Assembly: GCF_003334335.1 (NCBI RefSeq)
Contig: NZ_QOWQ01000096.1
Direction: 5' to 3' (one strand)
Source: Escherichia coli
Lineage (GTDB): Bacteria > Pseudomonadota > Gammaproteobacteria > Enterobacterales > Enterobacteriaceae
DNA length: 1,948 bases
Below are positions 1-1,948 of this stretch, piece after piece. The notes under the pieces were generated by a model. It searched no databases and was not told the origin of the DNA. It was given only the letters and a program-made list of their open reading frames with translations. Positions within the stretch are counted from its first letter, which is position 1; each line of letters opens with the position of its first letter. The position numbers and the translations under genes are program-made.

Positions 1-764
1 GTGCGTTTTTCCGGGTCATAGTTTGACGGCACCTGGATGATGCGACCGCGGATATGGTAGTTCACCGTCATCTGCTGACCACCAAACTGCTCCGCATCCA
101 CCTGCATCCCCACAATGGCCGTGTTCGGGTAGCACTGTTTCACATCGATGATTTCGGTGTATGACGACCACAGCGTTCTGTTCTGCAGCTGGTCCGTGGT
201 GCTGTCCGCCGTCTCCCTGACCATCCGGATGTTAAAGGGGCGGGGAGGCAGATTATCCAGAATCACCGACGCAAGGAACTGTGAGGTGGTCTTGCCGTTA
301 ATGGTGACATCCTTTTCCGTCACCCAGTTACCGTTACGCTGTAACTGAATCAGCAGACGGACAGAGGACGGATTACGGTCACCCTTTGACGTGGTCTCCA
401 CCAGTGACTGCACCCCGAAGGTCACCCGCAGGCGGTCAATGTTCGCTGACGTAATGGTGCGTGTTACCGGTTTTGCCCTGGTCACTTCGACACCCAGTAC
501 AGTTTCAGAGCCGGAGGACTCAAAGCCTTCCGGTGGTGTCTGCTCCTGCTCCCCGGCACGCCAGACCGCGGTCACACCGTGTATCACGGGATTACCGTCC
601 GTGTCCGTCAGCGGGGTTTTGTTCACCAGAATACTCTGCAGGCCTTTCACCGGGCCTTCTATCGGTCCCTCACCAATCGCATCAATCACGCTCATCATCT
701 GCGTGGATTTGAGATTATCCTTCACCTCACGAGGCGTGTGTGCCTTACCGCCACCTTTACCCAC
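1..764 (-). CDS. J: Host-specificity / tail-tip protein J (central tail fibre), N-terminal ~254 codons; gene continues past the window start
   Basis: Reverse-complement translation from GTG at 764..762 gives MGKGGGKAHTPREVKDNLKSTQMMSVIDAIGEGPIEGPVKGLQSILVNKTPLTDTDGNPV...NIRMVRETADSTTDQLQNRTLWSSYTEIIDVKQCYPNTAIVGMQVDAEQFGGQQMTVNYHIRGRIIQVPSNYDPEKRT, open to position 1. This closely matches the lambda gpJ N-terminus as I recall it (MGKGSSKGHTPREAKDNLKST...). There is no in-frame ATG upstream before a stop, and an AGGAGAGGGG Shine-Dalgarno lies 6 nt upstream. It is not in the ORF track only because it is truncated by the window edge. Confidence 0.9.
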   Translation of the reverse strand, partial: MGKGGGKAHTPREVKDNLKSTQMMSVIDAIGEGPIEGPVKGLQSILVNKTPLTDTDGNPVIHGVTAVWRAGEQEQTPPEGFESSGSETVLGVEVTRAKPVTRTITSANIDRLRVTFGVQSLVETTSKGDRNPSSVRLLIQLQRNGNWVTEKDVTINGKTTSQFLASVILDNLPPRPFNIRMVRETADSTTDQLQNRTLWSSYTEIIDVKQCYPNTAIVGMQVDAEQFGGQQMTVNYHIRGRIIQVPSNYDPEKR

Positions 765-770
765 TCGATC

Positions 771-780
771 CCCCTCTCCT
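771..780 (-). promoter_or_regulatory. Shine-Dalgarno sequence for J (AGGAGAGGGG on the minus strand)
   Basis: Minus-strand sequence reads AGGAGAGGGG-GATCGA-GTG; the purine-rich block sits 6 nt upstream of the GTG start at 764..762. Confidence 0.6.
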
Positions 781-805
781 GTCTGATGTCTGAATTTGTT
801 TATGC

Positions 806-838
806 CCAAAAAACAACAGGCACCCCGGAGGGTGCCTG
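806..838 (-). terminator. Rho-independent terminator on the minus strand, about 42 nt upstream of the J start
   Basis: Perfect 9-bp GC-rich inverted repeat CAGGCACCC (817..825) / GGGTGCCTG (830..838) with a 4-nt loop (826..829). On the minus strand the hairpin is followed immediately by UUGUUUUUUGGGC (plus 816..806). On the plus strand it is followed by CAUCAUGACGG with no U-tract, so it is unidirectional. Confidence 0.7.
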
Positions 839-876
839 CATCATGACGGAATAAAAATTCTGAATATCTTCACATT

Positions 877-904
877 TTCACAAACTGACTGTGGCGCGTA
901 TAAT
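877..904 (+). promoter_or_regulatory. Sigma70-type promoter on the plus strand: -35 TTCACA (877..882), 16-bp spacer, -10 TATAAT (899..904), with an A/T-rich UP-like tract upstream (~848..872)
   Basis: The -10 hexamer is a perfect TATAAT and the -35 matches TTGACA at 5 of 6 positions with 16-bp spacing. The upstream tract AATAAAAATTCTGAATATCTT is AT-rich. Predicted transcription start is about 911..913. Confidence 0.6.
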
Positions 905-910
905 TTCGCT

Positions 911-1008
911 GCGTTAGTGTTTTTTCTGCCCGAGTAACAAAAACAACTCCTTAACATTAATCTTCATTTGTCTGTCCCGCAGCTCCGCGATCACTGCGGG
1001 ATTTTTTT
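911..1008 (+). ncRNA. Candidate small RNA (~98 nt) in the I-J spacer, transcribed antisense to the tail operon
   Basis: Predicted start 7 to 9 nt after the TATAAT and 3' end at the U-tract of the plus-strand terminator. No ATG occurs anywhere in the transcript and the only GTG-initiated frame is 6 codons. An A/U-rich single-stranded stretch (CUUCAUUUGUCUG, 961..973) lies directly 5' of the terminator hairpin. Both ends are predicted, not mapped. Confidence 0.45.
975..1008 (+). terminator. Rho-independent terminator on the plus strand
   Basis: 8-bp stem TCCCGCAG (975..982) / CTGCGGGA (994..1001) with 6 G-C pairs and an 11-nt loop, followed by TTTTTTT (1002..1008) and then ATGTTTTAT. On the minus strand the same hairpin is preceded, not followed, by the run, so it is oriented to stop plus-strand transcription. 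It abuts the I stop codon (1014..1016). Confidence 0.75.
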
Positions 1009-1013
1009 ATGTT

Positions 1014-1694
1014 TTATCCCTGTCGACCAATAACCACGACCTTTCCGCCCCCGCCTTCATCACGGGTACTGATGTCCTGGGATATACGGCGGGAGCCAAC
1101 CAGCATTTCCCCGTAAGGCACCGGCATCGGGTTACCCTGGGCAATCATGTTGTCCAGTGAGGAAAAGTACGTGTTCTGTTTACCGTTATCCGTTGCCCGG
1201 TAATCCGGTGTTTTTGCCTTCGGGGCCAGCATCTGGGCCACACCGCCCAGAATCATGCTGGCTCCAAGTGAAAACAGCATCGTGGTGGCAGAAAAACCAC
1301 CGGCTGCCAGGGCTGAACCCCATAACGCCATCGTGGCTCCGGCAGTGAAGAAAGAGCCCACGATGGCCGCCGCCCCCAGCACAATCTGCAGTCCGCCCTT
1401 TCCGGCACCGGCCAGTCGCGGCACAATATGGATGACCGTTCCCTCACCCAGTGGTTCGTGAAGGCGGGCATACACCGCCTCCGGTGCCGTGTCATCACCG
1501 GCAATACGTATCTGGTACCAGCCTTCGTTCATCTGACGGCGAAAGCCCGGCACCTGCAGCGACAGGGCACGGATGGCTTCCGCTGCCGTGTTCACATACA
1601 GGCTGATGCGGCGACCAAATCGTTGTAAATCCCCGTGAAGGCAGATGCGGACCAGTGGCGGTGACGCCAGACAGAATGCGTTCGTCGTTGCCAT
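1014..1694 (-). CDS. I: Tail assembly protein I (lambda gpI family): N-terminal ubiquitin-like domain plus Gly/Ala-rich hydrophobic C-terminal region
   Basis: Complete 226-aa ORF from ATG at 1694..1692 to TAA at 1016..1014. The translation MATTNAFCLASPPLVRICLHGDLQRFGRRISLYVNTAAEAIRALSLQVPGFRRQ...GKQNTYFSSLDNMIAQGN...GEMLVGSRRISQDISTRDEGGGGKVVVIGRQG closely resembles lambda gpI as I recall it. A GAGAGAGG purine run (1706..1713) lies 11 nt upstream of the start. Position immediately downstream of K and upstream of J matches the conserved K-I-J order. Confidence 0.92.
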   Translation of the reverse strand: MATTNAFCLASPPLVRICLHGDLQRFGRRISLYVNTAAEAIRALSLQVPGFRRQMNEGWYQIRIAGDDTAPEAVYARLHEPLGEGTVIHIVPRLAGAGKGGLQIVLGAAAIVGSFFTAGATMALWGSALAAGGFSATTMLFSLGASMILGGVAQMLAPKAKTPDYRATDNGKQNTYFSSLDNMIAQGNPMPVPYGEMLVGSRRISQDISTRDEGGGGKVVVIGRQG

Positions 1695-1948
1695 TTTTCG
1701 GAATACCTCTCTCGTTTGCTCAGTTGTTCAGGAATATGGTGCAGCAGCTCGCCATCACCACAGTAAATGGCGGCATGATTCGGCACCGATGAACCAAAAC
1801 AGCACAGCAGCACATCGCCCGGTTGTGCTGATGACAACGGCACCTGATACAGCCCTGTGGCCTCCAGATTATCCAGGTACAGGTTCTGGCCGTTGCGCCA
1901 CCAGTCATCCTCGCGATGAAAATCCGGCATATCAATTCCCGCCAGATG
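1592..1948 (-). CDS. K: Tail assembly protein K (lambda gpK family), C-terminal NlpC/P60 (C40 peptidase-like) region; N-terminus lies beyond the window end
   Basis: The frame is open from the window edge (...HLAGID-MPDFHREDDWWRNGQNLYLDNLEATGLYQVPLSSAQPGDVLLCCFGSSVPNHAAIYCGDGELLHHIPEQLSKRERY...) to TGA at 1594..1592. The Met at 1930 given in the ORF track is internal, not the true start. The LLCCFG Cys and downstream His residues are typical of NlpC/P60 tail-assembly proteins. The ORF overlaps the I start by 103 nt in a different frame. Confidence 0.9.
   Translation of the reverse strand, partial: HLAGIDMPDFHREDDWWRNGQNLYLDNLEATGLYQVPLSSAQPGDVLLCCFGSSVPNHAAIYCGDGELLHHIPEQLSKRERYSEKWQRRTHSVWRHRHWSASAFTGIYNDLVAASACM

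Follow-up and report, generated by a model that had tools for sequence, protein, structure and literature searches.

What does a terminator-like hairpin do directly ahead of the tail-tip gene J, on the very strand from which the tail operon is read, and does it belong to the cargo inserted beside it? These questions are raised by a 1,948-nt stretch of Escherichia coli DNA (hereafter the window), which carries the tail genes K, I and J, all on the minus strand (Table 1). Gene I is annotated by RefSeq as a shorter version of 582 nt with its start at 1595. The J product begins with MGKGGGKAHTPRE and belongs to the lambda J family, and it is named gpJ in records that are 100% identical. The spacer between I and J (765..1013) has a length of 249 nt compared to 60 nt in phage lambda, so that approximately 190 nt are extra, and this additional DNA holds the gene of the Hfq-dependent sRNA PasB on the strand opposite to the tail operon. 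The same spacer type was found in about a third of the complete E. coli genomes (1,841 of 5,426). An ORF of 38 amino acids (957..841, minus strand), which ends exactly at the hairpin, was considered and is probably not a gene: no Shine-Dalgarno sequence precedes its ATG, and its reading frame is interrupted in E2348/69 and other variants, either by an indel of 1 nt or by stop codons.

Table 1. Positions of the annotated and predicted features within the window.
Feature	Position	Strand	Remarks
Gene K	1930..1592	-	ORF; C40 peptidase in a 100%-identical genome
Gene I, tail assembly protein	1014..1694	-	stop TAA 1016..1014; ORF open to ATG 1694
PasB sRNA (EcOnc22/23/24 family)	911..1008	+	antisense to the tail operon; predicted primary transcript ~911..1008
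PasB terminator	stem 976..982 with 994..1000; U-tract 1002..1008	+	pattern scan
PasB sigma-70 promoter	877..904	+	TTCACA, 16 nt, TATAAT (899..904); 11/12
CRP-like site TGTGA-N6-TCAGA	859..874 (flanks 855..878)	.	upstream of the PasB promoter; predicted
Intrinsic terminator-like element	806..839	-	stem-loop and U-tract; predicted
Hairpin parts	5' arm GCAGGCACCC 839..830; loop UCCG 829..826; 3' arm GGGUGCCUGU 825..816	-	
U-tract UUGUUUUUU	816..808	-	followed by GGG
J leader	765..807	-	43 nt from U-tract to J start; Shine-Dalgarno-like GGAGAGGGGG
Gene J, 5' part (tail tip / host specificity protein)	1..764	-	GTG 764..762; runs off the window

Anatomy and conservation of the J-proximal hairpin

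A preliminary description of this DNA had noted a GC-rich hairpin of 9 bp followed by UUGUUUUUU on the K-I-J strand, approximately 42 nt upstream of the J start. Both statements held: the sequence is exactly as given, and 43 nt separate the U-tract from the GTG start codon. The stem comprises nine Watson-Crick pairs and a terminal G.U pair (10 pairs, 7 of them G:C). Counted from the nine-pair stem, the tail follows directly on the 3' side, and eight of its nine bases are U. The loop together with its closing pair, C(UCCG)G, is of the extra-stable UNCG type. A folding energy of -21.6 kcal/mol was calculated for the hairpin (z -3.46), and only 1 of 200 dinucleotide shuffles was as good. In the plus-strand direction, CAUCAUGACGG comes after the hairpin and a U run is lacking, and because of this the element is considered unidirectional, pointing towards J only. 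Intrinsic terminators are recognized by a G+C-rich stem of roughly 5-14 pairs closed by a short loop, and by a U-rich tract at the 3' side of the stem that is present only on the transcribed strand; both features are found here on the minus strand. Over the whole window, a simple terminator pattern was not enriched (3 found vs 2.2 expected); in the I-J stretch of homologous loci, 2 such patterns were found vs 0.2-0.3 expected. Folding of the J leader revealed no stable structure that joins the leader to the hairpin, and the J ribosome-binding site takes no part in the folding of the hairpin.

The conservation of the element was followed in 120 IMG/VR loci with a conserved block upstream of the PasB promoter and in further loci retrieved via J; 118 of these loci were usable for counting modules. 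Hairpins of the window's type, termed family 2, were represented by 17 distinct sequence versions. Across these variants, 99.4% of the stem cells were paired, compared to 33-48% when the 3' arm was slid by 1-3 columns. At pair 18:27, ten variants have C:G, five have U:A and two have U.G, and G.U variants occur at two further stem pairs. Since each G.U corresponds to an A.C mismatch in a plus-strand RNA, the pairing is kept specifically on the tail-operon strand, that is, on the RNA strand concerned in the case of a terminator. Within the tail, the G and the following UUUU are invariant in all 17 variants, while the bases beyond vary. The weight of the pairing evidence is modest: a double change is seen at only one pair, and the variants are close relatives of each other. 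We regard this evidence as supportive rather than overwhelming. With regard to the earlier designation as a strong intrinsic terminator, all sequence features are present, the stem pairing is conserved and the element lies on the K-I-J strand, which supports the designation at the sequence level.

PasB and the modular make-up of the I-J junction

PasB is an sRNA of EPEC E2348/69 with a length of 83 nt, encoded between E2348C_1436 and 1437 (Pearl Mizrahi 2021; Zhu, Shabalina and Storz 2026). In the window, the published 83-nt species maps to approximately 927..1008, and the northern probe used for E2348/69, AATCCCGCAGTGATCGCGGAGCT, matches exactly at 981..1003 in the orientation that detects a plus-strand RNA. 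The E2348/69 spacer is 91% identical to that of the window and contains the same sense hairpin with another loop, and the PasB promoter is identical in E2348/69 and in a further homologous locus (L002). No Rfam family matched PasB. In EHEC Sakai, the RNAs EcOnc22/23/24 of about 85 nt were described as destabilised without Hfq (Tree 2014). Their probe matches the O157 version of the I-J spacer (L004 and L008; Sakai Sp15), and for this reason they are taken as the EHEC homologues of PasB; judged by sequence, PasB and EcOnc22/23/24 (Sakai Sp15, Sp14 and Sp11) are one sRNA family. The EPEC table gives EHEC homologues for PasA and PasD and leaves the PasB entry blank. In the current record, the Sakai coordinates published for EcOnc22 (Tree 2014) point to a place approximately 128 nt left of the PasB homologue. 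The identity of EcOnc22 was based on the probe sequence and not on these coordinates. The shift presumably stems from an older version of the Sakai genome.

Two other assignments were discarded. The C/A-rich plus-strand RNA had suggested an anti-sRNA of the AgvB/AsxR type, but those map just after the late promoter and not between tail genes. HnrS (EcOnc10-12) was set aside as judged from coordinates and size alone, namely Sakai coordinates about 5 kb from AgvB1 and a size of 66 nt.

Upstream of the PasB promoter, a CRP-like site was predicted, the half-sites of which are invariant among divergent homologues, while the spacer reads AGATAT, AGAGTT, AGAAAT or AGAATT. Its centre lies approximately 43-45 nt upstream of the predicted PasB start, a position that fits an activation of PasB by CRP. 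The 2026 Pas preprint nowhere mentions promoter, CRP or antisense, and its passages on terminators all refer to the Pas sRNAs' own terminators; in the literature searched, no description of the CRP-like site or of the modular make-up of the PasB spacer was found.

The CRP-like site is also the last conserved block ahead of the hairpin. Homology among the variants ends just past it, near position 850 of the window, and two unrelated modules, which are exchanged as units, span the distance from this block to the J start codon. The family-2 module has 75-94 nt and the family-3 module 181 nt, the latter with the hairpin AACCCCGGUAUC-UGCU-GAUACCGGGGUU followed by UCUCUUU. Among the 118 PasB-bearing loci, family 2 was found in 75 and family 3 in 40, while the remaining three with neither module are two internal deletions and one rearrangement into J. 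Hence, a sense hairpin with U-rich tail is kept between the PasB promoter and J in 115 of 118 loci (97%). Several loci with apparent spacers of 66-70 nt had suggested a family-2 hairpin without PasB; this proved to be an artefact of a misplaced I stop, and those loci all carry PasB.

Phage lambda, which has no PasB, contains a third hairpin family, AAACCGCC-UGCG-GGCGGUUU followed by UGUCAUUU, located 23 nt before J, although it was not called by the stricter terminator scan. The consensus AACCGCC-UNCG-GGCGGUU plus UUGUC, approximately 23-25 nt before J, is shared by lambda and seven lambda-type junctions from Escherichia, Citrobacter and Raoultella; lambda-type junctions of this family with the loop UCCG have a J that is only 63-79% identical. 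In Citrobacter sp. On2M (L140), the lambda-type hairpin is kept with a different antisense gene between I and J. No such hairpin precedes J at the junctions with a sodC-like insert (L132, L133 and L199; E. albertii and IMG/VR contigs). Distant I-J junctions were sampled sparsely: species-representative genomes contributed 12 J-related loci, and from the viral contigs the profile scan retained no J genes other than near-identical ones. Within this scope, a sense hairpin with U-rich tail before J is, by sequence, a common but not universal positional feature of lambdoid phages.

A component of a moron would be inherited with the insert and be absent without it. The J-proximal hairpin behaves differently: it is swapped independently, and lambda-type junctions without PasB have a hairpin of their own, so it is not part of the PasB insert. 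It also lies outside the PasB transcript: it occupies 806..839 of the minus strand, ahead of the PasB promoter, and points away from that promoter. The junction sequences thus place the hairpin in a separately exchangeable J-proximal module, and they indicate that PasB entered the gap between the stop of I and the hairpin. The suggestion that the hairpin marks the other boundary of an inserted moron is therefore correct as to its place on the J side of the PasB insert, but it does not extend to a component of that insert.

Some further observations concern this junction. In the family-3 module (L002 225..400 and L003; about 40 of the 118 IMG/VR loci, many of them ExPEC-type prophages), a long hairpin is accompanied by a terminator-like hairpin of 12 pairs, and the sense RNA reaches -39.7 kcal/mol (z -5.7), so that the module resembles a small structured RNA encoded on the strand of the tail operon. 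The second of its hairpins is deleted in two loci. A spacer variant of 424 nt (L006 397..820 and similar IMG/VR loci) contains the CRP-like block twice, on either side of an insertion of 185 nt, a layout suggestive of recombination between two spacer types at this block. More broadly, the I-J junction is a general insertion site for antisense cargo, namely PasB, a sodC-like gene and a small Citrobacter gene; all of the examined inserts are antisense to the tail operon.

A putative conditional terminator and its alternatives

According to the preliminary description, the hairpin would uncouple J from the upstream genes unless it is read through by antiterminated, Q-modified polymerase. In NZ_AP022815.1, which is 100% identical over the spacer, Q (4617..5300 of the extracted locus L223) lies 24.8 kb upstream of J (30104..33574), and the lysis, head and tail genes, J, lom and the tail fibre genes are all on the same strand. 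The sense strand of this late region was scanned with our own relaxed hairpin criteria over 34 kb, from Q to beyond the tail-fibre genes. Hairpins were found in eleven intergenic gaps (about ten besides I|J) and three more within genes. The gap sites are located after Q, after the tRNAs, before an esterase gene, around the lysis genes, at E|FI, I|J, J|lom and lom|stf, and after a YadA-like gene, and the I|J hairpin is the most stable of the scan at -21.1 kcal/mol. In lambda, sense hairpins with a U-rich run were found at D|E, E|FI, I|J, J|lom and lom|stf (L222: 6097, 7163, 15460, 18920 and 19612), and nearly every gap of more than 40 nt in the lambda late operon has such a hairpin, none of which is annotated in NC_001416. 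In the papers covered by a keyword search, the I-J hairpin is nowhere described as a terminator, neither for lambda nor for these prophages. As a side observation, the hairpin AGCCCCUC-UCCG-GAGGGGCU at 8219 of L223, before a SASA-family esterase, resembles the STnc100/PasD terminator and lies at the place described for PasD2; the NZ_AP022815.1 prophage probably carries a PasD-type RNA besides PasB.

Q-modified polymerase is terminator-resistant, which is a well-established property. With Q upstream in a co-oriented operon that contains about ten other terminator-like hairpins, read-through by Q-modified polymerase is the expected route to J expression, and the J-proximal hairpin would be passed in the same way. 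We therefore favor, with moderate confidence and on the strength of the sequence features, a working Rho-independent terminator that stops unmodified polymerase and is bypassed by Q-modified polymerase. Ordinary RNA polymerase would release its RNA at the U-tract (approximately 808-812) and would not enter J. Such polymerase could originate from spurious starts inside the tail genes, or from a mirror -10 element of the strong PasB promoter about 85 nt upstream. In the lysogen, J and the downstream genes would be held silent while the adjacent PasB cassette is transcribed in the opposite direction. After induction, Q-modified polymerase from the late promoter would read through, as at the other terminator-like hairpins of the operon, and K, I and J would stay coupled. 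Termination at the U-tract, the bypass by Q and the insulation of J as the benefit are inferred here from sequence and gene order.

The mirror -10 element is the hexamer AATTAT (905..900, minus strand) opposite the PasB TATAAT, in which positions 2 and 6 pair mutually. This A2/T6 geometry has been reported for widespread bidirectional promoters with divergent starts 18 bp apart. On this basis, a transcript of approximately 85 nt would start on the minus strand near 893 and end at the U-tract. However, when the spacers of the window and of three homologues were scanned, no sense-strand sigma-70 promoter passed, so the source of the polymerase to be stopped is hypothetical. In EPEC lysogens, DESeq2 base means of 4.8 for I and 15 for J were obtained vs 482-1082 for PasB, a pattern that fits an active sRNA gene embedded in a silent operon. 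Insulation from the neighboring cassette would not be the whole reason for the element, since lambda has a hairpin without an insert or a known internal promoter. A hairpin before J is also dispensable, because it is absent with the sodC-type insert and the family-3 hairpin is deleted in two loci.

The predicted RNA of approximately 85 nt leads to a different reading, which we hold to be improbable, in which the hairpin is the 3' end of an unannotated sense sRNA (~892..808) that diverges from the PasB promoter, and U-rich stretch, hairpin and U-tail together form an Hfq module. Such an RNA would agree with the outward-facing terminators at both ends of the insert and with the mirror -10 and its bidirectional geometry, but neither a -35 nor any other sense promoter passes the scan. 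While AAUUUUUAUUCC lies just ahead of the hairpin, as an Hfq module would have it, the body of the putative RNA would consist mostly of the CRP-like site and the PasB promoter spacer, and fixed half-sites with a free spacer suit protein binding, not an RNA seed. The weak Rfam match to STnc100 at 888..807 (25 bits, E 0.007) also points in this direction; yet its score is far below the gathering value of 47, 127 positions of the model are skipped, and seven homologous loci lack the match. The two strong hairpins formed by the family-3 sense RNA (z -5.7) would be in line with a structured RNA, whereas no sense-strand Hfq peak at the I-J spacer is listed in EHEC (Tree 2014), and no such RNA is present among the EPEC table entries considered.

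Equally improbable in our estimate is a post-transcriptional role, either as a barrier to 3' exonucleases that stabilizes the late mRNA or as a processing point that sets the J ratio, with termination being incidental. Lambda keeps an analogous hairpin before J without a nearby promoter, lambda hairpins also follow the highly expressed D and E, with one after E in the host prophage as well, and the hairpin folds separately from the J ribosome-binding site. A stabilizing element needs no U-tract, however, and all three unrelated families have a U-rich run directly after the stem, which is even conserved within family 2. In lambda tail assembly, I and K are low-copy assembly proteins, and there is no obvious need to protect their message.

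A passive remnant without selected function, for instance a terminator left behind by a lost cassette or simply a joint at which mosaic modules recombined, appears very unlikely. The I-J junction is indeed a mosaic hot spot (PasB, sodC-like or other antisense gene) with one variant that duplicates the CRP-like block around a 185-nt insertion, and the hairpin is absent from some junction types, but compensatory and wobble changes keep the pairing, different lineages have three unrelated hairpin+U elements at this one position, and 97% of the PasB-bearing loci retain a hairpin.

Returning to the conditional terminator, a broader version of it can be formulated, which we consider doubtful as a whole. 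Here, a terminator before J would be a conserved lambdoid checkpoint, for which at least three unrelated elements would have been recruited independently, and which would make J and the later genes accessible to Q-modified polymerase only; in PasB prophages, it would additionally cap a divergent transcript from the CRP-controlled promoter, possibly an sRNA of approximately 85 nt.

Comparison with known systems

Terminators in Q-dependent late operons, morons and PasB are already known, and the present result is a precise map of a very common prophage spacer. Compared with the hairpins of the lambda late operon, the element of the window likewise lies on the same strand in an intergenic gap of a Q-dependent operon, and the lambda I|J hairpin also combines a loop of the UNCG type (UGCG) with a U-rich run. 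The two stems are, however, without homology, and that of the window is stronger (-21 vs about -15 kcal/mol), has a cleaner U-tract and is parted from I by PasB. As one of many terminator-like hairpins that Q-modified polymerase has to pass, the J-proximal hairpin is an ordinary and expected feature of a Q-dependent operon.

STnc100 (RF02076)/PasD offers a weak same-strand match, which is driven by a similar C(UCCG)G terminator, but this RNA is located near Q and the esterase gene and not between tail genes. Membership in this family was rejected with 25.0 bits vs the gathering score of 47, 127 deleted positions and no match in L001-L007.

The morons of lambdoid phages are autonomous promoter-gene-terminator units between late genes (Juhala et al. 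2000). The PasB unit resembles these, as it has its own promoter and terminator and lies between genes that are approximately 60 nt apart in lambda. Unlike a moron part, the J-proximal hairpin is not needed by the PasB unit, and an analogue exists in lambda without the insert. From these comparisons, the J-side terminator appears as an older and independently exchangeable feature of the I-J junction.

A further counterpart is PasB of E2348/69 itself, with the same 249-nt spacer, the exact probe match and 91% identity. PasB differs from the window's hairpin in that it is encoded on the plus strand and has its own terminator at 976..1008, while the hairpin sits upstream of the PasB promoter and faces away. 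The packaging of PasB within the tail operon can thus be described as a promoter in the middle, accompanied by a CRP-like site, with outward-facing terminators on both sides. If the J-proximal terminator works as proposed, this arrangement would explain how an active sRNA gene can reside inside a silent late operon of 25 kb without switching on the tail-tip gene.
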